Of a stretch of DNA of 9,856 nucleotides, positions 1 through 9,856 are shown one piece after another. This DNA comes from a virus. Taxonomy: Duplodnaviria > Heunggongvirae > Uroviricota > Caudoviricetes. The stretch lies in IMG/VR virus record IMGVR_UViG_2695420526_000009, one strand, 5' to 3'. Below the pieces are notes generated by a model that saw nothing but the letters and a program-made list of their open reading frames with translations, was not told the DNA's origin and searched no databases. Position numbers and translations under genes: made by a program. Every line of letters starts with the position of its first letter. Position 1 is the stretch's first letter.

Positions 1-183
1 TACACTAAATCAGTAAGTTGGCAGCATCACCCCGCCACAGAACAATTATTGCTTTTGCCGTTGATGACAATAAAGTTTTTATCGCAGGCGTATACCACGG
101 TGGGCAAATCTATGAAACCGATTTTTTATCCAGTGCACCGTAAAACCCCCATCCTTCAGGGCGTGGCGGATATCAAACTTTGG

Positions 184-1266
184 TCATTTTCTCTGGCTGA
201 TCTTTACCGGATAACCATCCCGAAGATCAATTAAGTGCTCCGGTTCAGAAGCAAACCATGCATAAGATCCCCACGCCAATTCTGGTATTGCCTTTTTAAA
301 AGGCAGAGCACTTCTGTCCATAAATGCCGTAAGGAATGCAAGATTTTTCTCGCTGAACCCAGCGTCAATAGCCAAATGAGTGAGAGTAACTTTTCGTTCC
401 CTGTTTATAGGCCCATCTGTCGCAACTACTTCAGTGAAAACTACAAGCATGTCCGAACCCGTTCGGTCCTCTCCCAAATCAATCAAAATAATATCTGGAA
501 GTGCTTTTGAGGCATCAATATTCAGCCCCAATGCTTTTGCCAATACATCATCCTGAGCAACAACTTTATTCCCGGATTCAGACAACCAGAGCACAGTTGG
601 ATTCTTAAGAAAATTAGGAGCAAAAACTTCGATGACGGCCTTAGCTATTGTACTTGACGGGCCCGGAGCTAAAGTTCTCTTCTCTCCATTTGGGAAAGTG
701 ACGACTACGGCATCAGCAGCAATCACTGCCCCTGATTTCAATAAACGCAACCTAGCAAGAGCGGCTTTGTTCAAATGATTTTCTTGCCAGGAACTTATTG
801 CACTCAGCAGCGAATCTCCTTCAAGCCCGGCATCAAAGAGTGCTGCAAAAGAGCGATTCAAACTGTAACGAGGACGAGAGGATGTGGTGGGTATACCTTT
901 ACGCTCAACAATTGCATTGCAAGGTATTAGGCCATTTTTTATAGTTTCATCACGTATTGGCTCACGCGTATTTTCCGCATACCATGCATCAGCAGGCCTT
1001 ATCTTTTGTTTAGAGAAAGTCATCTTTACCCAGCTTTCTCTGGACGCATCATCAGTAAGAGCAGCCTGCGAATCTCCCATACTTACAACCTGGCTGGGCC
1101 TTATCCATCGCCCCAGCCCCTCAACCGCACCAGCATAAAACATGACAAAAATTGTTTTTGCAGCTATTTCCCGAATTAAATATCCACGATTCTCAGTCCC
1201 TTCAGGGAAAATTAATTGTAATCTTTCCCGGATAACATTCAATGGGGGAACAACAGGCAGATTCAT
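184..1266 (-). CDS. Putative Type II restriction endonuclease (BsuBI/PstI-like), 360 aa
   Basis: Uninterrupted 360-aa ORF. Its ATG (1266) overlaps the stop of the upstream methyltransferase in an ATGA junction (1263-1266), indicating translational coupling. Position immediately downstream of an N6-adenine MTase fits an M-R operon. BsuBI/PstI family assignment is from recalled similarity of the N-terminal region, not a search; no PD-(D/E)xK motif was positively identified by eye. Confidence 0.55.
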   Translation of the reverse strand: MNLPVVPPLNVIRERLQLIFPEGTENRGYLIREIAAKTIFVMFYAGAVEGLGRWIRPSQVVSMGDSQAALTDDASRESWVKMTFSKQKIRPADAWYAENTREPIRDETIKNGLIPCNAIVERKGIPTTSSRPRYSLNRSFAALFDAGLEGDSLLSAISSWQENHLNKAALARLRLLKSGAVIAADAVVVTFPNGEKRTLAPGPSSTIAKAVIEVFAPNFLKNPTVLWLSESGNKVVAQDDVLAKALGLNIDASKALPDIILIDLGEDRTGSDMLVVFTEVVATDGPINRERKVTLTHLAIDAGFSEKNLAFLTAFMDRSALPFKKAIPELAWGSYAWFASEPEHLIDLRDGYPVKISQRK

Positions 1267-3095
1267 GCAATCATCACTCCATAGAAACCAGCGATAGTTC
1301 TCTCAATAATCCGTCTGTGGACGCCAGCATCAATTAACGATTGAATCTCCATCACCTGCTCCAGAGAAGGCAACGGGATTGAATTCAATTCATAGGCCGA
1401 AACAGCAACACTTCCGCTTATACACCTGAACGCCCGATCGACAACATGCGAATTAAGTAGCATATCAATAACATCAGGGCGAACCGCAGAGAACAATCCG
1501 TTTGAATATACAATATTAATATGGTTTTCAACTACTACGCCACCAGTTTCATCTATAAATCCCTGAGGTAAAATTGCCGCTAAAATCCTTCTGTCCTGTT
1601 CCTTCGATGTTGTCCGCTGAACAAGCACACATTCAGATTTTGTCACAAGGAAACCCTGTTGTGGGGTTATATCGATATAGGGAACATGATTTTTTCTGTC
1701 TGCACTAAAACGAAAACCAGCTGAAGTTATTGATTCCGCCCAGACTAATGGGTAGCTATTTTTTCCTTTCGTCGTACGCAACTGCGACTTAAATCGATTC
1801 CAGACTAACTGACCTGTAGAGACTGAGTATCCCAGATCAGCTAAACGCGTAGACATCTGTTTTAATACATTAAGAAAACAGGCATCATCTTTAACGCGTG
1901 GCAAAAGCCACGTTGCTCCACCTTTTTCTATATCAACATTACCTATTTTCTCAATTTTTGCTTTGTTCAACCCCTTAGGGACAAGTGAGGATACCTGGGC
2001 CCGAACTTTATGTTCTCCCGCCTTGAATGCTGTCAACATTGTTTCCTGGAGAACATCGTCAAAGACCCCATCCCTGTCAGTGACGAAATCAAGGGCATAC
2101 GGAGTAGTTTTTTCGGTCAAAAGGGTTCGCAGCGCGGTGAAATACTGCCCACCAAGAAAAGAAGTTGGCGTAAGAAATGCAATAACTCCTGTTTTCTCTT
2201 TAACCATGCGAACAGCTAAGTCGGTGAACAATCCATATAGATTTGCATGACCAAATAACGAACGAGAATATTTTTCTCTCGTTTTAATATCGAGAGTGAC
2301 ACGTCCGTAAGGCGGATTCCCTACCACAAGATCATAACCAGAAAATTTATCTTGCTGAAGCGCATCAGCAACAATAATTGTATCTTCAGGCAATCTACGT
2401 TTTACCTTTACACATAGTGGCATTAGTACAGATTCGAGCAATACCAAACTCATCCAAGCCGCAAATGGATCGATCTCTATCCCCTTTAAACGACGACTGA
2501 TTCTCCTCAACATCCATTCAGGGGAAGACCCCTTGTCTTTTTTTAACATTCGAATGGCTACTGGTGCCAAAAATGCACCGCCACCACACGCAGGATCAAT
2601 AACCGATGCATGAGAAAAATCAACACCAGACTTTTCAGCCAGGTCCAAGAGACGCGCTACCAAAGGTGGGGGGGTATAGTAAGCCCCCAATTCCGAACGG
2701 TAAGCGGATGGCAGCATTACCGTATAAATTGACCCAATCAGATATCCAGCGTCCTCCGCCGGAAATTGAGCAATAAGCTCACCTGTTCGTTCAGCGAGCT
2801 CGCGTGCATCACATGGAATGTCTTCTATGTAAACAGTGTGCGGTACTGCCCTCATTTTAATGCTGCTTTTTTGCTTTTTTGCAAGGGTATCCCAATATGC
2901 AGCTACGATGCTGAAGCAGTATGAGCGGGCATGCATCAACCTTGACTGCCCGGTTTTGTAATTGCCCGCATAACCTTTGGCCATGGCTTTACAAGTTTGA
3001 TATCTTTCCAGATTAGAAAACTCATTATCTGTAAAAAAATCAAAATGTTGCACATTCATAATGTAAAATCCTAATGTATCAAACATGCGGGCCAT
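1263..3095 (-). CDS. N6-adenine DNA methyltransferase, gamma class (Eco57I/PstI-like amino-MTase), 610 aa
   Basis: Translation contains GAYYTP (aa ~137-142), SAM-binding motif I VIDPACGGGAFL (aa 165-176, nt 2577-2597 verified by back-translation) and catalytic motif IV VVGNPPYGR (aa 257-265, NPPY at nt 2307-2318 verified). Motif I preceding motif IV is the gamma-class order. Start is ambiguous: ATG 3095 has no clear SD; an in-frame ATG 12 codons downstream (MNVQ...) has AGGA 9 nt upstream. Confidence 0.85.
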   Translation of the reverse strand: MARMFDTLGFYIMNVQHFDFFTDNEFSNLERYQTCKAMAKGYAGNYKTGQSRLMHARSYCFSIVAAYWDTLAKKQKSSIKMRAVPHTVYIEDIPCDARELAERTGELIAQFPAEDAGYLIGSIYTVMLPSAYRSELGAYYTPPPLVARLLDLAEKSGVDFSHASVIDPACGGGAFLAPVAIRMLKKDKGSSPEWMLRRISRRLKGIEIDPFAAWMSLVLLESVLMPLCVKVKRRLPEDTIIVADALQQDKFSGYDLVVGNPPYGRVTLDIKTREKYSRSLFGHANLYGLFTDLAVRMVKEKTGVIAFLTPTSFLGGQYFTALRTLLTEKTTPYALDFVTDRDGVFDDVLQETMLTAFKAGEHKVRAQVSSLVPKGLNKAKIEKIGNVDIEKGGATWLLPRVKDDACFLNVLKQMSTRLADLGYSVSTGQLVWNRFKSQLRTTKGKNSYPLVWAESITSAGFRFSADRKNHVPYIDITPQQGFLVTKSECVLVQRTTSKEQDRRILAAILPQGFIDETGGVVVENHINIVYSNGLFSAVRPDVIDMLLNSHVVDRAFRCISGSVAVSAYELNSIPLPSLEQVMEIQSLIDAGVHRRIIERTIAGFYGVMIA

Positions 3096-3154
3096 AACAT
3101 CTCATGGTGGCGCATAGCAAACTGGCCCGAAGAATATCACGCACCAAGTCGATC

Positions 3155-3170
3155 TCATAACCCGTTATGA
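3155..3170. promoter_or_regulatory. Perfect inverted repeat TCATAAC-CC-GTTATGA upstream of the methyltransferase start
   Basis: 7-bp perfect arms with a 2-bp centre, about 60-75 bp upstream (minus-strand sense) of the M gene start within the 3096-3309 intergenic region. Candidate operator or promoter-associated site; no binding protein identified. Confidence 0.3.
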
Positions 3171-3309
3171 CAATAAATCTTTGTAGCTGAACTCACTTGG
3201 TGATTTGTCAATCATTCCTGGCCTCCAGTTCGTCCTGAATCTCTTTATCGAGTTCACCGTATTTGTTAGTCCTCATCACTCACGACTTGACTTCCAGAAA
3301 TAACCTTGA

Positions 3310-3666
3310 TTATTCGGGGCTATATTTTGTCACCCTGCGTATCCGCGCTTTCGCATTACGCTCAATCTGGATTAGCTTTTCTATATTTTTTCGCCTTTCC
3401 CGCTCCTCCTGGCGCAAGAGCCTTACATCATCTGCCAGTCTGGTTTCTCTTTTCGCCACAGAGAGCATCCAGTCAAATGGCTCCACAACTGCACCGCAAA
3501 TTTTACAGCGGACCTGACGCTCTTTTTCGTCAACCCGTACAGAGGCGTGATGGCAATATGGTCTTTCCGATGGCTCATAAAGAAAATTAACCTGATTACG
3601 AGGGTTATCCTCTTTTACCGGAAATAAAACAATATTGCTTAACTCATCTTCTGGTTTTATTTCCAT
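3310..3666 (-). CDS. Hypothetical Cys/His-containing protein, 118 aa
   Basis: ATG at 3666 preceded by strong SD AAGGAGAGGAGC. Contains C-H-H ... C-x2-C cluster (RPYCHHASV...RCKICGAV) and a basic, coiled-coil-like C-terminus (RLLRQEERERRKNIEKLIQIERNAKARIRR). The longer ORF from the track (to 3723) is rejected because the SD sits just before the internal ATG. Confidence 0.6.
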   Translation of the reverse strand: MEIKPEDELSNIVLFPVKEDNPRNQVNFLYEPSERPYCHHASVRVDEKERQVRCKICGAVVEPFDWMLSVAKRETRLADDVRLLRQEERERRKNIEKLIQIERNAKARIRRVTKYSPE

Positions 3667-3723
3667 GCTCCTCTCCTTTGATGCGAATGCCAGCGGTAAT
3701 TGAAGCCTGATAGCTAATTTCAC

Positions 3724-4113
3724 TCACAGTACCGCCTCCTGAAAATCACCCTGATAGAAAGCCGGTACACGCTGCATAACTTCACTCTTCCGGCACTCGC
3801 GACAGATTATGTTCTGATGTCTGTCGTAGCGGCGTATTTCTCCGTCCGGTAATGACCAGATAAGGTCCGGATCAACCACAGATGGTTTCTTCAGCTTTGC
3901 CCTCGAGAGTTTTTTGCGGGCGTTTTGCCAGTCCTTACGCGCCTGTTCAGACGGGAATAACCCGTAACCAGAGTTGTATACATCGCCACTGGCAACCAGC
4001 TCTCTGGCGAGAACACTCATCAGATATCTTGTCGCACCTGTCTTGGCTTCCAGTTGCCGCAACGTCTCGCGACCGCTCAGACGTACAAGTTCAACAACCT
4101 GCCCTTTAATTTT
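3724..4113 (-). pseudogene. 5'-truncated copy of a phage gene (paralog of 4249-4431), N-terminus replaced by an IS end
   Basis: Reading frame is open from the IS boundary (4113) to the stop at 3724; it encodes ...KIKGQVVELVRLSGRETLRQLEAKTGATRYLMSVLARELVASGDVYNSGY..., matching the N-terminal region of the gene at 4249-4431 but lacking its first ~11 codons, which are replaced by IS sequence. Confidence 0.6.
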
Positions 4114-4238
4114 TGAGGTAGCCTGAGTTTAACGGACACTCCTTCCTGAAATAGAATGGCATCAGAAGGAGCTAATAATGAGCAGAAAAACCCAACGTTA
4201 CTCTAAAGAGTTCAAAGCCGAAGCTGTCAGAACGGTTC
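4114..4238 (+). mobile_element. IS3-family insertion sequence left end (IS600-like), truncated by the scaffold gap
   Basis: Begins with TG (TGAGGTAGCCTGAGTTTAACGGACAC...), followed by an SD (AAGGAG) and ATG at 4178 opening orfA (MSRKTQRYSKEFKAEAVRTV...), which I recall as the IS600 OrfA N-terminus. The element stops at the N-run, typical of assembly collapse at a repeat. Confidence 0.75.
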
Positions 4239-4248
4239 NNNNNNNNNN
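4239..4248. other. Assembly/scaffold gap (10 N)
   Basis: Ten consecutive n characters in the sequence. Confidence 1.
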
Positions 4249-4431
4249 GTAGCCAGAGTTGTATACATCCCCACTGGCAACCAGCTCTCTGGCGAGAACG
4301 CTTATTAAATATCTTGTCGCCCCGGTTTTAGCTTCCAGTTGTCGTAACGTCTCGCGCCCACTCTGGCGTACGAGTTCAACAACCTGCCCCTTAATTTTTT
4401 CCCGCTCTTCCTGTGTAAATACTTTTGCCAT
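4249..4431 (-). CDS. Hypothetical phage protein, N-terminal 61 codons (partial; 3' end lost at gap)
   Basis: ATG at 4431 (MAKVFTQEEREKIKGQVVELVRQSGRETLRQLEAKTGATRYLISVLARELVASGDVYNSGY), GGGGG SD-like stretch upstream, 15 nt after the stop of the preceding gene. The track ORF 4198-4446 reads through the N-run and IS and is an artefact. Confidence 0.6.
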
Positions 4432-4446
4432 AAGCGCCCCCGGCAA

Positions 4447-5172
4447 TCACTTTTCCGACACAATACGACCGGAGGAATCGACAATCTGTCGAACAATATC
4501 CCGGTGCTTGTTCAGCTCCCGCAACGCGGCGCAGACACGCTCCCACTTCTGGACATGACTTTTCGCCCGACGCAGTTCGCGGTTTGCCATATGCAGCGAT
4601 GGTAAAACCAGGTCATCCGCTTGCGTTTCGGTGAACGATGGCAACGACTGCACAATGTCCGCCACAGTTTCTGTTTTAATTTCTTCCTGTGTTGCAGCTT
4701 CCTGTACCGGTAACGCAACACCTGCTGGCTGAGGAAAGACTTTACCATCCGTTTCCGCTATGGATGCGGCTTTCGGCTCTGCCGGTAAATCAGCGCCCGG
4801 TATGCAGTACCGAAATTTACCGCCCTGATTCACGCGAATCAGACGCCCTTTGCTGATTGCCATGGCCAGCGATGAATTCGCCCGGCGGGAGGTAATCCCG
4901 AACATCAGTGCCAGCTCATCCGCCGTTTGTGGGCCATGTTGTTCAATCGCCTCAGTCAGCATTTGCGCTGTCACTTTCGGTACCGGTGACACTGGTTCAC
5001 TTTCACCAGCCTGAATCAGCCACCACATCGAACCCTTGTTATCCGCTTCACCACGGCGCTTCAGTTTCCACAGTTCGTTGACCGCATCTTCACGGCTGAT
5101 TCCAAGGCGGGACGCCACCACATGTGAAGAGGCTCTTTTCAGTGCTTTCAGTGCGTCAAATACAGTTTCCAT
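4447..5172 (-). CDS. Hypothetical phage protein, 241 aa
   Basis: ATG at 5172 ([13 protein letters not shown]...) preceded by GGAGGATG SD; the track's longer start at 5190 is a TTG. Lies directly downstream of the DnaC-like gene in the same operon. No recognisable motif by eye. Confidence 0.7.
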
Positions 5173-5193
5173 TAAAACATCCTCCAACAAAAA

Positions 5194-5940
5194 TTACTTC
5201 ACAACTCCCGGAAAGCTGACATTTGAACGCCAGCTATCCCAGTTAAACGTCACCCACCGACAACCGTTCATGGTCATGCGGTCCATAATCCTCTCACCAA
5301 GAAGCGTGCTCATTGCGGCATGATTCAGGTTTGTTAACATCCCGACACTGCACAGTGATGCTGTCCGGCGATCAATTATCTGGTGCAATACCACCTGCTC
5401 GTTTTTCGTCTCCCGCTGAATGCCTATTTCATCCAGGACCAGCAAATCAACCCCGCAAAGCTCCTGTAAAAATTTTTCACCGGATTTGCCGTTGTCGTAG
5501 CTGTCATGCAACACGCTCATGACATCAGACTCGGTGACGATAATCACGCTGCGCCCCTTCGCCATCAGCCGGTTACCCATCGCCGCTGCAAGGTGATTTT
5601 TCCCGGTGCCGGTTTTACCGCTGAACACAAAATTCGTGCACCCGGTCATCAGTTCGTCAGCTATGGATTTGGCCTGGCTCAGCGCGTATTTTTGCCCGTC
5701 GTTCTGCACCTGATAATTCGCAAACGAGCATTTGCTGTGCAGAGGCTGGATGCCCGAACGATTCAGGATTTTTTCCACCCGCAACTGGCGATTCTGGCGG
5801 TTAATCTCCTCGCTGCGTTTTCGTCCTTCAGCAAGTTGCCATTCCCGCCACTCCTCCACCGTCCGGTACGGTGGAACCGCCCCCTGTGGTGCAAGTCTGT
5901 GAATACGTTCAAGAACCCCGGCTGCCGCAATGTTTTTCAT
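5194..5940 (-). CDS. DnaC-like replicative helicase loader (AAA+ ATPase; Rac YdaV-like), 248 aa
   Basis: Walker A FSGKTGTGKNHLAAAMG and Walker B DLLVLDEIG; near-collinear resemblance to E. coli DnaC as recalled (e.g. RSGI-PLH, FENY/FANY, GERVMDRM/GERIMDRM, FNWDSYRS/FNWDSWRS). Stop of the O-like gene is 6 nt upstream. Confidence 0.9.
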   Translation of the reverse strand: MKNIAAAGVLERIHRLAPQGAVPPYRTVEEWREWQLAEGRKRSEEINRQNRQLRVEKILNRSGIQPLHSKCSFANYQVQNDGQKYALSQAKSIADELMTGCTNFVFSGKTGTGKNHLAAAMGNRLMAKGRSVIIVTESDVMSVLHDSYDNGKSGEKFLQELCGVDLLVLDEIGIQRETKNEQVVLHQIIDRRTASLCSVGMLTNLNHAAMSTLLGERIMDRMTMNGCRWVTFNWDSWRSNVSFPGVVK

Positions 5941-5946
5941 GCCACA

Positions 5947-7011
5947 TCACCCCCTGAATCCCGGCGGAATTTCGGTATCCGGTTCAGAAATATGATTCAC
6001 ACAACGCTGGTTGTTCGTGCCGCTTACCGGGAGCAACCAGGGGTTTTCAAAATTCCGGTCCGGCCCAAAAAACGTCGTCGCTCGCTGAACAAATTCCGTT
6101 CCCGCTTTCCCGGTCGCCGCCAGGTATCTCGCGTAACGCCTCACACCATCCAGCATGGTCTCTGGTGGCACCCCCTCGCGCAATCTGGCCTTCCAGGCAC
6201 TGAATGCGGATTTCTTCGGGTTTGCCCCGGCACGCAACGGGTATTCCCGCCAGACCTGTTCGAACACATCCGGATAATCCACTCGTCCCACAGGCTGCCC
6301 GGTGTTTTCCGGGGCTACCCGATCGGCTTCCCGCTGAATGGCGGAATCGGCTTCAGGCTGCTGCAGTTGGAGTGATTGCTCCGGCCTTGCGGTCATCACC
6401 TGCTGCACAGCGCCCGAATCGGCTTTCAGCGCATACGCTGAATCGGCTTCCGGTGTCGAGCCTGCTGGCTGACCAGGATTGACGGTCTGAACATCCCCTG
6501 CCTGGTTCGTGGCGTTTTTTACGCCATGGACCATAGTGTTTTGATCTTCTTTATCTGTATCTTTATCTGTATCTGTCGTGACTCGTCGTGACATGTGCGT
6601 GACATTTCGTGACGCGCCGTGACAATCGCCATTTTGTTCCCGCTTTCTTTCCCTCTCTCGCTGCGCCCTCTTGCGCTCTGCAGGAGATTTTGCGGTTTGC
6701 GAAATATTGCCGTTGTCCTCTTTAAGCACCTGGCGTTTTTCCCATCCAGTGATTAAATCACCATCAAGTACCCGCCCCTGCATCGTCTGCAAAATTGAAT
6801 CAATTACCTCTTCTGTCACGTCGAGCGCACTTGCCAAATCTTCTGTCGTGACATCAATGTGACCTCGCGTGACATTTCGTGACGCGCTCACCAGGAGGTG
6901 GATATACACTGCCATCACTGTTGCAATTGGCTGCCCTGACACCCTGGCAATTGTTCGCCACTTAGGGTCATTTGGCATGTCATGCCATAATCTGAGCCAG
7001 GCGTTAGCCAT
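5947..7011 (-). CDS. Phage replication initiator, O-like (Rac YdaU-like), 354 aa
   Basis: Position between the YdaT-like gene and the DnaC-like loader. Iteron arrays lie inside the coding sequence, as with lambda O/ori. ATG at 7011 with GAGGTG SD-like sequence upstream; the track start at 7017 is GTG. The central region is low-complexity (TDTDKDTDKED) and encoded by the repeats. Confidence 0.75.
   Translation of the reverse strand: MANAWLRLWHDMPNDPKWRTIARVSGQPIATVMAVYIHLLVSASRNVTRGHIDVTTEDLASALDVTEEVIDSILQTMQGRVLDGDLITGWEKRQVLKEDNGNISQTAKSPAERKRAQRERERKREQNGDCHGASRNVTHMSRRVTTDTDKDTDKEDQNTMVHGVKNATNQAGDVQTVNPGQPAGSTPEADSAYALKADSGAVQQVMTARPEQSLQLQQPEADSAIQREADRVAPENTGQPVGRVDYPDVFEQVWREYPLRAGANPKKSAFSAWKARLREGVPPETMLDGVRRYARYLAATGKAGTEFVQRATTFFGPDRNFENPWLLPVSGTNNQRCVNHISEPDTEIPPGFRG
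6549..6623. repeat. Origin-like region: tandem 12-bp AT-rich repeat (CTTTATCTGTAT x2) followed by five CGTGAC iterons at ~10-bp spacing
   Basis: CTTTATCTGTAT at 6549-6560 and 6561-6572; CGTGAC at 6577, 6587, 6598, 6608 and 6618 (one helical turn apart), all within the O-like gene. Confidence 0.6.
6846..6887. repeat. Second iteron cluster (four (T/C)GTGAC copies), sharing an exact 21-bp block with the first
   Basis: CGTGAC/TGTGAC at 6847, 6858, 6868 and 6878; GCGTGACATTTCGTGACGCGC occurs at both 6597-6617 and 6867-6887. Confidence 0.5.
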
Positions 7012-7082
7012 ACTCACCTCTTCTGATACCGAATCTTTTTACTCACGAGTTGCCGGGAGCGATTCGATATGGCTATTGTCAG

Positions 7083-7508
7083 TCAATGTACTGCCACAGC
7101 ATTTCCTGCCGGGCCACCACGGTTCATCTGATTGAAACCGGCGATTGCCACTGCGACAAAATCATCAGCGTCTCTCACCAGTCGTTCATGCGTCTCCACC
7201 AGTTCCCGAAAATAAGCTGAACTGTGGCTGCGCATTCGAGCCACCAGCGGAGGTGGCATTGCCCTTTCGATCGCAGGTAACAACGCCTGAATTTTTTCAA
7301 CAGCGTCAGGGGTGTCTTTATCCAGCCAACGGAAAATCTTTTGGGTGTTGAGATAAAGCGTGTTGTGCTTGCTGTCGTTATGCAGAACCGGAAACGTCAT
7401 TCCCAGTTCGAAATAAACCCTGGTTATTTCAGCTGCCGGAACTTTTTCACCGTCCGGATGCGCCCAGGCTTTCATCGCCATGCGGATGTGTTCATGCTTG
7501 ATTTTCAT
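7083..7508 (-). CDS. YdaT-like protein (CII-position regulator of Rac-type prophages), 141 aa
   Basis: Immediately downstream of the Cro-like gene with ATGA overlap (7505-7508) and upstream of the O-like gene, the position and size of Rac YdaT. Assignment is by synteny and size, not a search. Confidence 0.65.
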   Translation of the reverse strand: MKIKHEHIRMAMKAWAHPDGEKVPAAEITRVYFELGMTFPVLHNDSKHNTLYLNTQKIFRWLDKDTPDAVEKIQALLPAIERAMPPPLVARMRSHSSAYFRELVETHERLVRDADDFVAVAIAGFNQMNRGGPAGNAVAVH

Positions 7509-7768
7509 GAATCAACCCCCGCCGATGGTTGTGTGTTAGCCTGAAACTCAGCAGGCAAGCCGTCAGTTGGGTTGGGGTAGGTTTTACTGTCAATCTCATG
7601 TGGGGTCACCACCCATCCCGTTGCTTCACACCAACGTAATATTTTTTCTCCTGTAAGTTTTGCACGCCCCGTTATAACGTGGCTGACCATCCCTTGGGAT
7701 GCGCCAACAATCTCAGCAAATGAACTCTGGGTTATATGAAAATGATGCAAATATTCTCCAAGATTCAT
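7505..7768 (-). CDS. Cro-like HTH protein (XRE family; YdaS-like), 87 aa
   Basis: HTH-like segment QSSFAEIVGASQGMVSHVITGRAKLTGEKILRW; divergently placed against the repressor gene. ATG 7768 chosen (MNLGEY...); the track's longer start at 7795 is a TTG. Confidence 0.7.
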   Translation of the reverse strand: MNLGEYLHHFHITQSSFAEIVGASQGMVSHVITGRAKLTGEKILRWCEATGWVVTPHEIDSKTYPNPTDGLPAEFQANTQPSAGVDS

Positions 7769-7803
7769 AATCCGCCCTATGTGATGTGTTACCAATGCAT
7801 AAT

Positions 7804-7845
7804 TAATAGCACTGTTATTTTTAAAAGTAAATAGTGATACTATTT
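7804..7845. promoter_or_regulatory. Divergent switch region with two operator-like palindromes
   Basis: Perfect palindrome AAATAGT-GAT-ACTATTT at 7829-7845 and imperfect TAATAGC-ACT-GTTATTT at 7804-7820, in the 111-bp AT-rich spacer between the divergent repressor and Cro-like starts. Confidence 0.5.
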
Positions 7846-7879
7846 CAAAGTGATTAGCAATCTTATTAGAATTGGATGT

Positions 7880-8380
7880 ATGAAAAGAAAATCATTGTCA
7901 GACACCGACCTCAACGCCGCCAGAAGACTGAAAGAAATCTGGATGGCAAAGAAATCTCAGTTGGGATTGACTCAGGAACGTGCGGCGGAAATTATGGGGT
8001 TTTCAACACAAGGGGCGGTAAGTCACTACCTAAATGGTCAAACCCCACTAAACCTTGAGGCTGTTCTAAAGTTTGCTGGCTTACTGAAAGTTCCCCCTGA
8101 GTCAATCAGGCCAGACATGGTAGATTTGCTGCAAATTGCAAGGATGTATTGTCGAGAACCACAGCAAGATAACATAGTCGCATTACCAGCAGACACAGAA
8201 CAAACAGAGGATGAACTACCGTTTGCCGTAGAGCCGATGGAACGAGATTTAATCCATACGTTCAGAGCTTTTCCGAAAGAAGATCAAGAACACATGCTTC
8301 AGGAGATGAAAGATAAAAAAGAATCAATGGATCGTACGGTTGCGCGGTGGTTAGCTGCACAAAAAGGCCGTCGCGCCTAA
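7880..8380 (+). CDS. Prophage repressor, XRE-family HTH (RacR-like), 166 aa
   Basis: HTH LGLTQERAAEIMGFSTQGAVSHYLNGQTPL near the N-terminus; no S24 peptidase (LexA-like) domain visible, consistent with RacR-type rather than cI-type repressors. ATG 7880 (MKRKSLSD...) preferred over the track's GTG at 7850. Confidence 0.8.
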   Translation: MKRKSLSDTDLNAARRLKEIWMAKKSQLGLTQERAAEIMGFSTQGAVSHYLNGQTPLNLEAVLKFAGLLKVPPESIRPDMVDLLQIARMYCREPQQDNIVALPADTEQTEDELPFAVEPMERDLIHTFRAFPKEDQEHMLQEMKDKKESMDRTVARWLAAQKGRRA

Positions 8381-8399
8381 ATCAGAGGAGATATGTAAA

Positions 8400-8594
8400 A
8401 TGAGTACAGTCCTTTCCCCAATGGTTTCAGAATTTGAGACAGTTGAGCAAGAAAATAGTTACAACGAATGGCTGCGGGCCAAAGTAGCAGCAAGCCTCGC
8501 GGATCCCCGCCCGGCGATTCCGCATGATGAGGTAATGGCGGAAATGGAACAAATTATTGCCCAAATTGCTGCTGCAACTCACAGAGGTGAATAA
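8400..8594 (+). CDS. Putative type II antitoxin (partner of the ParE/RelE-family toxin), 64 aa
   Basis: Small acidic ORF with SD GAGGAG 9 nt upstream; its TAA stop overlaps the toxin ATG (TAATG at 8592-8596). Antitoxin family (ParD/Phd-like) not determinable by eye. Confidence 0.6.
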   Translation: MSTVLSPMVSEFETVEQENSYNEWLRAKVAASLADPRPAIPHDEVMAEMEQIIAQIAAATHRGE

Positions 8595-8884
8595 TGTTAC
8601 CCGTTTTATGGCTACCATCTGCTCGTGATGATTTGCGCCAGATCGTAGCCTACATAGCTAAAGAAAATCCCGCGGCAGCACGCAGAATGAAAATTCGAAT
8701 TGAAACATCCGTTTTGCCGCTCACAGAGCATCCTTACCTGTATCCTCCAAGCGAGCGAGTTCTTGGTCTTCGTGAAATTGTAACTCATCCTAACTACATC
8801 ATCCTTTACCGAGTAACAGCATCAAGCATAGAAGTAGTAAATATTGTGCATTCTCGAAGACAGTATCCAGGCAAAAACAGTTAA
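8594..8884 (+). CDS. ParE/RelE-superfamily toxin, 96 aa
   Basis: Size, basic C-terminus and family-typical pattern (N-terminal W...ARDDLRQIVAYIA; C-terminal LREIV...YIILYRV...IEVVNIVHSRR) plus the overlapping upstream small gene. Confidence 0.75.
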   Translation: MLPVLWLPSARDDLRQIVAYIAKENPAAARRMKIRIETSVLPLTEHPYLYPPSERVLGLREIVTHPNYIILYRVTASSIEVVNIVHSRRQYPGKNS

Positions 8885-8898
8885 TTATTCCCGCCGAC

Positions 8899-8925
8899 AG
8901 AACCACCTTAGGGTGGTTTTTTCTT
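8899..8925 (+). terminator. Rho-independent terminator after the toxin gene
   Basis: Stem AACCACC (8901-8907) / GGTGGTT (8912-8918) with loop TTAG, followed by a T-run (TTTTTTCTT). Confidence 0.6.
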
Positions 8926-8939
8926 GCCCCAACAAAAAA

Positions 8940-8986
8940 CAATAGCGATGCTATTTACATCAAAAAAAAATAATGATGCTATTGTT
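8940..8986. promoter_or_regulatory. Second operator-like cluster (OL-like) with candidate rightward promoter
   Basis: Palindrome AATAGC-GAT-GCTATT at 8941-8955 and half-site copy AATAAT-GAT-GCTATT at 8969-8983, same consensus as the 7804-7845 sites. A TTTACA -35-like hexamer lies at 8954-8959; no convincing -10 was found. Confidence 0.45.
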
Positions 8987-9164
8987 TCAGGCGTCAACCC
9001 ACCCCGCCCCACAGAATGCAGGGCAATACTTCGAGTTACCAGACAGTGGTCAGGGGTTAAGTAGCCAGCCCGAGGCGTAAGAACATGACGGCAGGGTTCA
9101 ATCTTTAACTATGCAGCAGGTTTTTTGTTCCGCCACCCCGGCGTTAAGGGGAAATGAGGTCAGC

Positions 9165-9317
9165 ATGGATACTATCGATCTTGGCAACAACGAATCTCTG
9201 GTGTGCGGCGTGTTCCCTAACCAGGATGGAACGTTTACCGCCATGACGTATACCAAAAGCAAAACGTTTAAAACCGAATCTGGCGCGCGTTGCTGGTTAG
9301 CCAGAAACACTGACTGA
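9165..9317 (+). CDS. Small phage protein, 50 aa (YdaF-like by position)
   Basis: ATG 9165 with GAGG SD 5 nt upstream (MDTIDLGNNESLVCGVFPNQDGTFTAMTYTKSKTFKTESGARCWLARNTD). The track's longer start at 9111 lacks an SD. Confidence 0.55.
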   Translation: MDTIDLGNNESLVCGVFPNQDGTFTAMTYTKSKTFKTESGARCWLARNTD

Positions 9318-9328
9318 TGAGGCTGACG

Positions 9329-9694
9329 ATGGAATTTAAAGATTTACCGTCTGATGTACAGAAAACAGCAGCTCATACATTGCATTCTGTGCTGCGAGAA
9401 ATCGGGAAAGATATTGCAAGCGAGCCAGCAAAAGATCTGGCCCGGAAAATCAAGACCGCTTTCGTTGAGCTTTATAATGTTGGCACTGACTCTGAAACTG
9501 TCGAGACCAAGACCGTAAGTTCACCAATATTCTCACTTGAGCCAAGCGTATTATCAGGTGAAATATGCACCGAGATTTCCAGCGAACTGCTTCCGGTAAT
9601 ACGAGAAGCAATTCGCCGTCGCGGTTTGGATGGAAGTTATGATCATGACGTTCTGCAAGTTCTCAGGACAATGGTGACTTCACTGGGGATTTGA
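9329..9694 (+). CDS. Hypothetical acidic phage protein, 121 aa
   Basis: ATG 9329 with GAGG SD 6 nt upstream (MEFKDLPSDVQ...); the alternative ATG at 9317 overlaps the previous stop (TGATG). No recognisable motif. Confidence 0.6.
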   Translation: MEFKDLPSDVQKTAAHTLHSVLREIGKDIASEPAKDLARKIKTAFVELYNVGTDSETVETKTVSSPIFSLEPSVLSGEICTEISSELLPVIREAIRRRGLDGSYDHDVLQVLRTMVTSLGI

Positions 9695-9856
9695 TCCCTG
9701 CGTCCTCTAAGCTTTTGATATAGCGGTCCTCCAAGAAGCGGTAAATTTTGTCGAAATCATCTTTTCCCTCTGGTTTATTCAGAGGATTACAGGACCCGTA
9801 AGTAGCGGCATACATTTCAACCGTTTGGTAATGACTCCAACTTATTGATAGTGTTT

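Follow-up and report, generated by a model that had tools for sequence, protein, structure and literature searches.

The window, by which we mean the whole 9,856-nt stretch of DNA that was analysed, is a ~9.6-kb IS1-bounded remnant of a decayed lambdoid prophage at the Qin locus of Shigella sonnei. The remnant is full of IS scars, and a second ParE-type toxin gene at 33-143 is truncated by IS1. It keeps a segment that is bracketed by a restriction-modification pair and a toxin-antitoxin pair, the latter located in the immunity region directly after a repressor gene. The features of this region are as follows.

7083-7508, minus strand: ydaT-like gene, CII analogue (Pfam YdaT_toxin 5e-9; PHROG 163)
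7505-7768, minus strand: ydaS/cro-like HTH gene, 87 aa, divergent from the repressor gene (Pfam HTH_3; PHROG 35)
7805-7819, 7830-7844 and 7853-7867, no strand assigned: OR-like operator cluster with spacings of 25 and 23 bp (repeat family D1)
7844-7872, plus strand: PRM-like promoter TTCAAA-17 nt-TAGAAT (consensus match only, from the promoter scan)
7880-8380, plus strand: repressor gene, 166 aa, likely start ATG 7880 (HTH_3; CI-like N-terminus)
8384-8390, plus strand: Shine-Dalgarno sequence AGAGGAG for paaA, read from the sequence inside the 19-nt spacer
8400-8594, plus strand: paaA-family antitoxin gene, 64 aa (Pfam, NCBIfam and PDB matches)
8594-8884, plus strand: parE-family toxin gene, 96 aa (Pfam and PDB matches)
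8899-8925, plus strand: intrinsic terminator ending the repressor-paaA-parE unit (RNA fold; inverted repeat I25)
8941-8955 and 8969-8983, no strand assigned: OL-like operator pair, the same palindromes as in OR
9165-9317, plus strand: ydfA-like DUF1391 gene, first of the PL-side operon (Pfam DUF1391 3e-28)

Repressor, operators and transcription unit

Residues 12-91 of the repressor match the N-terminal domain of lambda CI (1lmb, E 2.5e-9) with ~32 of 80 residues identical (~40%), and over its last ~45-65 residues the protein aligns to PaaR1, PaaR2 and DicA, with the NCBIfam DicA model matching positions 74-130. No peptidase S24 (autocleavage) domain was found in the Pfam search. The protein thus appears to be a lambda-CI-like HTH fused to a PaaR/DicA-type C-terminal domain and, apart from the allele itself, this predicted fusion is all that is new at the locus. 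Such a combination implies a different immunity specificity. It also gives direct support to the view of PaaR as a CI analogue, which had been argued without sequence similarity, because here a CI-homologous HTH joins a PaaR/DicA C-terminus.

The ORF finder started the repressor gene at GTG 7850, a start that we rejected because ATG 7880 fits the PGAP annotation, the alignment to CI and the position of the promoter; PGAP annotation of locus L001 contains the same 166-aa protein. The -10 element of the PRM-like promoter lies 7 nt upstream of ATG 7880, placing the start of transcription at about the ATG itself, so that the repressor mRNA is probably leaderless. Translation without a leader has been demonstrated in the case of paaR2, and lambda cI is a known example (PMC8630535). 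The pattern scan of 7400-9400 for sigma-70 promoters and terminators returned no more sites than expected by chance. An antisense promoter at 8997-8970 (minus strand, directed toward parE) was discarded as a bare consensus match of a kind whose count is at chance level.

The 15-bp palindrome AATAGYNNTNCTATT occurs at 7805, 7830 and 7853 in the spacer between the repressor and cro-like genes and at 8941 and 8969 after the terminator. When up to 2 mismatches were allowed, the pattern gave 10 strand-matches where 1.27 were expected, and 0 of 200 shuffles reached 10. The second operator cluster that had been called in the first-pass annotation is therefore real in the sense that two copies of the OR palindrome follow the terminator. 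The OL-like pair flanks a -35-like TTTACA (8954-8959) accompanied by a weak -10 element, which suggests a putative PL analogue at 8941-8983. This stretch is immunity-specific, and homology to other immunity types restarts at ~8993. The HTH-coding part of the ydaS/cro-like gene likewise falls inside a non-homologous 'imm' block (7580-8254).

The neighboring genes are those of a lambdoid immunity region. The YdaS/Cro-like protein matches the PHROG 35 transcriptional repressor (8e-17) and is found as an exact copy on at least 1000 contigs under Shigella names, while the ydaT-like product matches the PHROG 163 'CII-like transcriptional activator' (1.7e-39). The ydfA-like gene has its counterpart in the same place in every related locus and, behind dicA, in K-12 Qin. 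Folding gave no excess stability (z +0.74) for the conserved non-coding stretch at 8993-9165, a candidate for a nut-like or leader RNA; it varies too little among loci for a covariation test, and no Rfam family was detected anywhere in the window.

According to the first-pass annotation, the gene pair starts 20 bp after the repressor stop with no intervening terminator. The second part of this statement stands, and the gap is 19 nt (8381-8399) from the repressor stop TAA at 8378-8380 to paaA. No terminator-like site was found in this gap by the pattern scan, and folding of the junction gave no significant hairpin (-10.1 kcal/mol, z -1.1). The two genes of the pair overlap by 1 nt in a TAATG that was correctly placed in that annotation, in which A8594 is both the last base of the paaA stop TAA (8592-8594) and the first base of the parE ATG (8594-8596); we read this overlap as probable translational coupling. 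A terminator at 8899-8925 had also been proposed. The simple pattern scan missed it, but folding revealed a 9-bp stem (8899-8907 / 8912-8920) closed by a UUAG loop and followed by a run of U up to 8925; its folding energy is -15.1 kcal/mol (z -3.0), and a fold of equal stability arose in only 1 of 200 shuffles. With a terminator only after parE, the sequence is compatible with co-transcription of repressor, paaA and parE.

Identity and conservation of PaaA and ParE

The 64-aa protein matches Pfam PaaA2 (PF21217, 3e-23) as its sole domain, NCBIfam NF050103 with 94 bits against a cut-off of 50, and the PaaA2 structure 3zbe in the PDB (1.4e-23). Neither Pfam nor NCBIfam reported a DNA-binding domain or a match to ParD or ribbon-helix-helix families in it. 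The 96-aa protein matches Pfam ParE_toxin (PF05016, 1.8e-17) and the ParE2 crystal structure 5cw7_B (6.7e-37). These homologies of both proteins rule out that the genes are chance ORFs, and the profile search that had been suggested for the pair, earlier described as a ParE/RelE-family toxin-antitoxin pair, identifies a ParE-family toxin with its antitoxin.

PaaA and ParE are each 67% identical to the crystallised PaaA2 and ParE2 of prophage CP-933P, and 78% and 83% identical, respectively, to a second copy in E. coli O157:H7 EDL933 that we take to be PaaA1/ParE1. Both ORFs are intact and full length when compared with the crystallised proteins. dN/dS values of 0.08-0.18 for paaA and 0.055-0.07 for parE, obtained from comparisons in which synonymous sites are near saturation, show purifying selection on both genes. 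Within the sequence collection, 6211 blocks carry the exact ParE protein in their index, and identical copies of PaaA, of ParE and of the repressor each occur on at least 1000 contigs under S. sonnei names.

Comparison with known loci

A three-component paaR-paaA-parE system has been published (Hallez 2010; Jurenas 2021, PMC8630535), and the sequence argues that the pair and repressor described here have this architecture, a result that is supported but not novel. The toxin is related to ParE1 and ParE2, and a PaaA antitoxin lacking a DNA-binding domain is encoded directly upstream of it. A same-strand HTH regulator precedes both, its homology to PaaR being partial (C-terminal only), and the surroundings are those of a lambdoid immunity region with divergent ydaS/ydaT, shared OR/OL palindromes and conserved synteny. 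The locus is an uncharacterised relative of the system described and tested in E. coli O157:H7.

The paaR1-paaA1-parE1 locus of EDL933 (CP-933M; Hallez 2010) was equated by inference with our locus L012, from strain ATCC 43894; an L002-type locus was rejected as the source of ParE1 because it is absent from O157:H7 genomes, whose second copy is L012. This paaR1 locus shares with the window the order ydaT-ydaS-repressor-paaA-parE-ydfA-ydfB...dicB, the 1-nt start/stop overlap and similarity over the C-terminal ~65 residues of the repressor. The two also fall in one specificity class, with VMAEME..IAQIA at the antitoxin C-terminus and PSARDDLRQI..YIAKEN at the toxin N-terminus. In contrast, the repressor HTHs are unrelated (a protein of 133 aa there, the CI-like one of 166 aa here), the operators and the terminator/OL stretch differ in sequence, and the host of the window is S. 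sonnei, in which it is a Qin-site remnant. Synonymous sites are saturated between the two loci (dS ~1.3-1.7), which indicates that they are old alleles.

Like the window, paaR2-paaA2-parE2 (CP-933P/Sp12; PDB 5CW7/5CZE/5CZF/3ZBE, Sterckx 2016), which is also present in Escherichia phage Evi, has the three-gene architecture in an immunity region with divergent YdaS/YdaT, a PL/OL analogue after the pair, an antitoxin without a DNA-binding domain, and a repressor that is a CI analogue with a probable leaderless start. It belongs to the other specificity class, PaaA2 ending in ERRMAERFAKMRKER and ParE2 beginning with ESADTDLDDITSYIARFD, and its operator consensus is of the GTTTAGTAA type as opposed to AATAGnnnnnCTATT in the window. 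Similarity to lambda CI is detected for the window repressor, whereas none is detectable for PaaR2, a protein of 123 aa starting MQKKE (PMC8630535). Because its repressor N-terminal domain and operators differ from those of PaaR1 and PaaR2, details of regulation at the window locus may differ as well.

Much is known of the CP-933P system from experiment. PaaR2, YdaS and YdaT are the analogues of CI, Cro and CII, respectively; PaaR2 represses PR and PL and regulates PRM, and the downstream PL933P analogue is repressed by both PaaR2 and YdaS (PMC8630535). The three genes are co-transcribed from a promoter upstream of paaR (PMC4803016). PaaA2 is degraded by ClpAP/ClpXP, and toxicity and cognate neutralisation have been demonstrated for the O157:H7 homologues (PMC8630535; PMC4803016). 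The locus is addictive and matches ccdAB in stabilising an unstable mini-F; in neither transcriptional state was ParE2 found to be activated, and the physiological role is debated (PMC8630535).

The gene order ydaT-ydaS-repressor-paaA-parE-ydfA...dicB is identical in E. coli loci with three other repressor types and in phage Evi, and the cassette stands behind at least 4 different repressor N-domains. The antitoxin C-terminus covaries with the N-terminal helices of the toxin in the 12 loci compared (11 assigned by motif, and L019 by eye after the motif misfired), giving two old, co-varying specificity classes. The reported lack of cross-neutralisation between PaaA1 and PaaA2 (PMC4803016) fits this covariation. 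The two classes are also represented, as stand-alone modules of two genes, in alpha-, beta- and gamma-proteobacteria; a contig scan by exact peptide words, informative on context outside enterics and not on prevalence, found 8 distant loci.

Outside this family, lambda cI-rexA-rexB has a parallel layout, in which accessory genes expressed in the lysogen likewise follow the repressor directly, in the same orientation, and end before OL/PL. The pair does sit in a rexAB-equivalent slot, as had been proposed, between a CI-type repressor gene and a terminator followed by OL-like operators, and the N-terminal domains of the two repressors are homologous. Unlike lambda, the window encodes no RexA/RexB homologue at this position, since PaaA and ParE show no such homology in Pfam, NCBIfam or PHROG, and its repressor is without the S24 autocleavage domain. 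The equivalence with rexAB is positional only.

Canonical ParD-ParE systems (RK2, Caulobacter, Vibrio) have in common with the window a BECR-fold ParE toxin and a small antitoxin encoded upstream, and the window toxin shows weak sequence matches to their solved ParE structures. There, however, ParD is a ribbon-helix-helix autoregulator, whereas PaaA has no ParD match and autoregulation in this clade is delegated to a separate regulator. Among K-12 prophages, Qin occupies the chromosomal site of the window, between ydfI and ynfG-ynfL. With these K-12 immunity regions the window shares a DicA-type repressor C-terminus and a downstream ydfA/DUF1391 gene, and in Rac the stretch corresponding to 8979-9310 is 85-88% identical. 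The first-pass annotation was right that K-12 Rac has no such pair, as none lies between racR and ydaG/ydaF; none lies between dicA and ydfA in Qin either. Qin (dicA-ydfA), not Rac, is the better K-12 comparator.

Proposed function and significance

We conclude that the locus is very probably a toxin-antitoxin system of type II and of the PaaR-PaaA-ParE kind, within the immunity region that belongs to a cryptic prophage at the Qin site of S. sonnei. Our sequence analysis shows which genes these are and how the locus is laid out, its operators and terminator, the purifying selection and the synteny; the structure of the operon, its control by the repressor, the lability of the antitoxin and post-segregational killing come from experiments with the CP-933P homologue, and we infer that the window allele would behave likewise. 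The CI-analogue repressor gene (7880-8380) would be transcribed from the PRM-like promoter, probably as a leaderless mRNA, and the transcript would run through the 19-nt spacer into paaA and the coupled parE, ending at 8899-8925. By analogy with the homologue, PaaA, having no DNA-binding domain, would wrap and neutralise ParE, and transcription would be controlled in its stead by two proteins that act on the OR/OL palindromes, the repressor and the divergently encoded Cro-like YdaS. ParE is predicted to have the BECR fold, to affect DNA topology as a toxin and to trigger the SOS response. Since PaaA is presumably proteolytically labile, loss or replacement of the locus would free ParE, and cells that lose the immunity region may then be killed or arrested. 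The net effect would be addiction that stabilises the immunity region or the prophage remnant.

A different target for the toxin, that of a RelE-like ribosome-dependent mRNA interferase in place of a topoisomerase-directed ParE, might be suggested by the NCBI names 'RelE/ParE toxin' and 'RelB-family antitoxin'. Pfam PF05016 does not separate RelE from ParE (bioRxiv 10.1101/2025.01.28.635273), the NCBIfam model TIGR02385 RelE_StbE matches with 29.3 bits, just above its cut-off of 27.9, and ParE2 itself has been reported to be without gyrase inhibition in vitro. We nevertheless consider this very improbable, as K-12 RelE gives no detectable BLASTP alignment to the window toxin, whose two strongest matches among solved structures are ParE2 chains. 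Its other structural matches are weak or ambiguously named: 6x0a and 5ceg, labelled just 'plasmid stabilization system', rank above the next-best clearly named relative, Caulobacter ParE1 (3kxe), which has an E of only 0.29, about the same as that of the RelE/StbE chain 7etr (E 0.3). It is very improbable, moreover, that the pair is a decaying, inert relic whose toxin is attenuated or unexpressed. Its host element is an IS-scarred remnant, related toxin genes have been inactivated (the IS1-truncated gene at 33-143, and parE2 in L008, interrupted by an IS91-family element), and ParE2 activity went undetected in CP-933P under steady state (PMC8630535), yet the full-length ORFs, the low dN/dS, the intact Shine-Dalgarno sequence, coupling overlap and terminator, and the abundance of the exact ParE sequence all speak against decay.

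The pair follows the repressor gene in the same orientation and precedes OL/PL, which also raises the idea that it is expressed in the lysogen for abortive infection or phage exclusion, as a functional counterpart of rexAB; such a role would be compatible with one in addiction. Infection by another phage would silence transcription of the host or from PRM, or would set off the degradation of PaaA, and the ParE thereby freed would bring the cell to arrest ahead of progeny production. Lysogen expression by read-through has been demonstrated for the homologue (PMC4803016), and RelE/ParE-superfamily modules have been discussed as anti-phage systems, for example HigB activated by a lambda tail protein (bioRxiv 10.1101/2025.01.28.635273). 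We regard exclusion as unlikely, given that the phenotypes published for PaaA-ParE homologues are plasmid stabilisation and addiction (PMC8630535), that our literature searches turned up no report of a PaaA-ParE phage-defence phenotype, and that RexA/RexB homology is lacking. PADLOC likewise has no model for PaaA, ParE or the repressor, and matched only the restriction-modification genes. There is a slim chance that the cassette is a lysogen-expressed defence or guard device and a true functional counterpart of rexAB, in which case PRM shut-off by a superinfecting phage, a heteroimmune imm recombinant or an IS-mediated deletion might conceivably free ParE as the labile PaaA is lost. If so, this might explain why the S. 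sonnei remnant retains exactly the segment bracketed by restriction-modification and toxin-antitoxin genes.

For the PaaR-PaaA-ParE system that we favor, the discovery value of the locus is small because the architecture, regulatory logic, structures and addiction have been published for the O157:H7 paralogues. The cassette is a natural system for the study of toxin-antitoxin specificity and of capture by phage regulatory circuits. The minimal IS1-bounded remnant of S. sonnei is present in thousands of sequenced isolates, and it offers a simple test site for how toxin-antitoxin and restriction-modification addiction may shape the survival of prophage fragments during genome decay.

Anatomy and family of the gene pair

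The repressor gene is followed by two genes on the same strand:

8400-8594, + strand: paaA-family antitoxin gene (ORF, 64 aa)
8594-8884, + strand: parE-family toxin gene (ORF, 96 aa)

An ORF search placed both reading frames exactly where the first-pass annotation had put them, with the paaA stop TAA (8592-8594) and the parE start ATG (8594-8596) sharing one base in TAATG. The repressor stop TAA lies at 8378-8380, leaving a spacer of 19 nt rather than the 20 bp first proposed, with AGAGGAG at 8384-8390. The proposed absence of a terminator from this gap held, as a terminator pattern scan found no terminator-like site in or near the spacer and RNA folding gave no significant hairpin at the repressor-paaA junction. 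The terminator claimed at 8899-8925 was recovered by folding as a 9-bp stem (8899-8907 / 8912-8920) and a trailing U-run, with a stability of -15.1 kcal/mol and a z-score of -3.0 that was equaled in 1 of 200 shuffles. Spacer length aside, every element of the first-pass observation was confirmed, and its interpretation as a toxin-antitoxin pair in the slot that lambda uses for rexAB is supported.

HMM searches yielded the expected antitoxin and ParE families. For the 64-aa protein the hits are Pfam PaaA2 (PF21217, 3e-23) and NCBIfam NF050103 (94 bits against a cut-off of 50), and among solved structures PaaA2 (3zbe, 1.4e-23); for the 96-aa protein they are Pfam ParE_toxin (1.8e-17) and, among solved structures, E. 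coli O157 ParE2 (5cw7_B, 6.7e-37). Placement within the toxin family matters because PF05016 mixes ParE and RelE families (bioRxiv 10.1101/2025.01.28.635273). Solved relatives other than ParE2 are all weak: Caulobacter ParE1 (3kxe, E 0.29) and a RelE/StbE chain (7etr, E 0.3) have nearly equal scores, and 6x0a and 5ceg are labeled only 'plasmid stabilization system'. No alignment with K-12 RelE was detected. Mainly from its similarity to ParE2 the toxin is placed on the ParE side, and a RelE-like RNase activity is unlikely.

An exchangeable immunity region around a common cassette

The pair is embedded in an array of regulatory genes and sites:

7083-7508, - strand: YdaT/CII-like gene, upstream of the repressor
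7505-7768, - strand: Cro-like HTH gene, upstream of the repressor
7844-7872: promoter-like TTCAAA-17-TAGAAT ahead of the repressor ATG 7880 (consensus match only)
9165-9317: ydfA-type DUF1391 gene, downstream of the OL-like sites

Beyond the Cro-like and YdaT/CII-like genes lie replication genes, namely a DnaC-like ATPase gene and an O-like gene. The repressor most likely starts at ATG 7880 to give a product of 166 aa, which is also the PGAP call. Its residues 12-91 align to the lambda CI N-terminal domain (E 2.5e-9, ~32/80 identical) and its C-terminal ~45-65 residues to PaaR1, PaaR2 and DicA, while a Pfam search found no peptidase S24 domain. The promoter-like match would set the transcription start at ATG 7880, implying a leaderless repressor mRNA like that of cI.

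The 15-bp palindrome AATAGYNNTNCTATT occurs in three copies (7805, 7830, 7853) in the spacer that separates the divergent regulator genes and in two copies directly past the terminator (8941, 8969), where a second operator cluster had been claimed. Its 10 strand-matches compare with 1.27 expected by chance, a count that no shuffle reached. A minus-strand promoter-like TTGACG-16-CATTAT (8997-8970), which overlaps the OL sites and is directed toward the parE 3' end, is probably not meaningful because the scan count is at chance level. Conservation of the adjoining non-coding stretch 8993-9110, which separates the OL-like sites from ydfA, extends to every immunity type examined and to the racR-ydaG spacer of K-12 Rac, but not to K-12 Qin. 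Rfam gave no match for this stretch and folding no excess stability; it could represent a conserved leader or a nut-like region.

Compared with other loci, DNA homology is lost over 7580-8254 (Cro-like HTH, operators and repressor N-domain) and again from the parE stop to ~8992 (terminator and OL sites), after which it resumes. This pattern is the 'imm' mosaic in its classical form. The compared loci have the toxin-antitoxin cassette and the repressor C-terminal domain in common and differ by exchange of the DNA-recognition parts, and the cassette sits behind at least four repressor types of 166 aa (the window), 133-135 aa, 153 aa and 123 aa (PaaR2). One E. coli locus (L006, 2977-3840) carries two tandem repressor-like genes ahead of paaA-parE, a 123-aa PaaR2-like and a 153-aa PaaR1-like one whose 3' end overlaps paaA, apparently the scar left by recombination of two immunity types.

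An allele of the PaaR-PaaA-ParE system

In E. coli O157:H7, paaR2-paaA2-parE2 maps to the immunity region of the cryptic prophage CP-933P, where PaaR2 is a functional CI analogue made from leaderless mRNA, YdaS and YdaT are the Cro and CII analogues, and PaaR2 and YdaS repress a PL/OL analogue past the toxin-antitoxin pair; the bistable locus matches ccdAB in stabilizing a mini-F (Jurenas et al. 2021, PMC8630535). Hallez 2010, as summarized in PMC4803016, found that a promoter upstream of paaR drives co-transcription of all three genes, that PaaR is required for full repression, and that the antitoxins of the two paralogous O157:H7 systems do not cross-neutralize. We recovered PaaR2 from an E. 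coli locus (L008) as 123 aa with the N-terminus MQKKE sequenced in the paper, 100% identical in O157:H7 genomes, and a second O157:H7 copy from strain ATCC 43894, which we infer to be the CP-933M system PaaR1-PaaA1-ParE1. Identity to this second copy is 78% for the window PaaA and 83% for the window ParE, as against 67% and 67% to PaaA2 and ParE2. The window pair is an uncharacterized allele of a known, experimentally studied system. In the L008 contig (1109-2889) an IS91-family element splits parE2 right after paaA2 and alters the toxin ORF 5' end, an instance of a toxin inactivated in nature.

The pair has homologues in 842 of the 5426 complete E. coli genomes, always annotated as a RelE/ParE toxin with a RelB-family antitoxin, and in one isolated phage, Evi. 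In O157:H7 genomes (e.g. NZ_AP018488.1 2125213-2125796) RefSeq/PGAP labels the experimentally characterized PaaR2 'hypothetical protein', and in some of them PaaA2 too. Across 12 loci, 11 assigned by motif and a Pseudomonas locus by eye after the motif search misfired, the antitoxin C-terminal ~18 residues and toxin residues ~8-35 form two co-varying classes; these segments presumably touch each other in the complex. Both classes are found in Bartonella, Paracoccus, Acetobacter, Komagataeibacter, Pseudomonas and metagenome-assembled genomes, where the pair stands alone with no PaaR-, YdaS-, YdaT- or YdfA-like neighbors. These solitary pairs support the proposal, already in print, that a phage immunity operon captured a free two-gene module, and suggest that the two classes predate that capture.

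By analogy, repressor, paaA and parE would form a single transcription unit to 8925, as shown for the homologue and compatible with the sequence here, and the repressor and Cro-like protein would control it through the OR-like and OL-like palindromes. Given the 67% identity to PaaA2-ParE2, PaaA would bind and neutralize ParE, as structures show for that pair, and with a labile PaaA loss of the locus would free ParE and cause cell death or arrest, as shown for paaR2-paaA2-parE2. The least secure step is the molecular target: when overexpressed, ParE2 associates with the nucleoid and induces SOS (PMC8630535), yet it is reported neither to bind GyrA59 nor to inhibit gyrase in vitro.

An abortive-infection role like that of rexAB, which could coexist with addiction, is attractive from the position of the pair. 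Neither PADLOC nor the literature searched supports it. That the pair is an inert relic is unlikely because its signals are intact, both genes are under purifying selection (dN/dS 0.05-0.18 against relatives with near-saturated synonymous sites), and conservation is strict, the exact ParE protein being indexed in 6211 blocks of the collection.

A prophage remnant at the Shigella sonnei Qin locus

The exact PaaA, ParE and repressor proteins are each on at least 1000 contigs under Shigella sonnei names, and S. sonnei chromosome CP146292.2 matches window 4249-9856 at 100% identity. Complete S. sonnei genomes carry the element as a ~9.6-kb segment bounded by IS1 copies, flanked by ydfI on one side and ynfG-ynfH-dmsD-clcB-bidA-mlc-ynfL on the other, as at the K-12 Qin locus. 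Terminal inverted repeats of IS1 form both window ends (1-31 and ~9826-9856). The window is the entire inter-IS1 segment of this remnant, which lies between ydfI and ynfG. Qin is a closer K-12 comparator than Rac. Unlike the window, Qin has dicA then ydfA with no toxin-antitoxin pair at the corresponding place, and Rac has racR then ydaG/ydaF, also with no pair, as the first-pass annotation had stated.

The complete genomes are colinear with the window except for 4114-4248, with 21 mismatches in the left part (1-4114) and 0-1 in the right part. This junction holds an IS3-family element end (orfA start MSRKTQRYSKEFKAEAVRTV), which we take to be IS600-like, then 10 N at 4239-4248, and 151 bp of a DUF977 gene on either side give duplicated ORFs (3724-4062 and 4198-4446). 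In the draft assembly this represents either a scaffold join or an IS copy that was collapsed.

The left part encodes a prophage-borne restriction-modification pair whose genes share 4 nt:

184-1266, - strand: BsuBI/PstI-family type II restriction endonuclease (PADLOC REase_II, 3e-128)
1263-3095, - strand: N6-adenine methyltransferase (PADLOC MTase_II, 2e-300)

Beside it, at 33-143 (+ strand), the IS1 end truncates a second RelE/ParE-family toxin gene, leaving a 3' stump of the last ~32 codons; a related E. coli prophage (L001, 3613-3912) has a ParD/ParE pair whose toxin shares 84% identity with this stump.

Two addiction-type modules, the restriction-modification pair and paaA-parE, thus bracket what survives of the prophage. 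Addiction by paaA-parE and by the neighboring restriction-modification pair may explain the survival of this particular fragment in S. sonnei.
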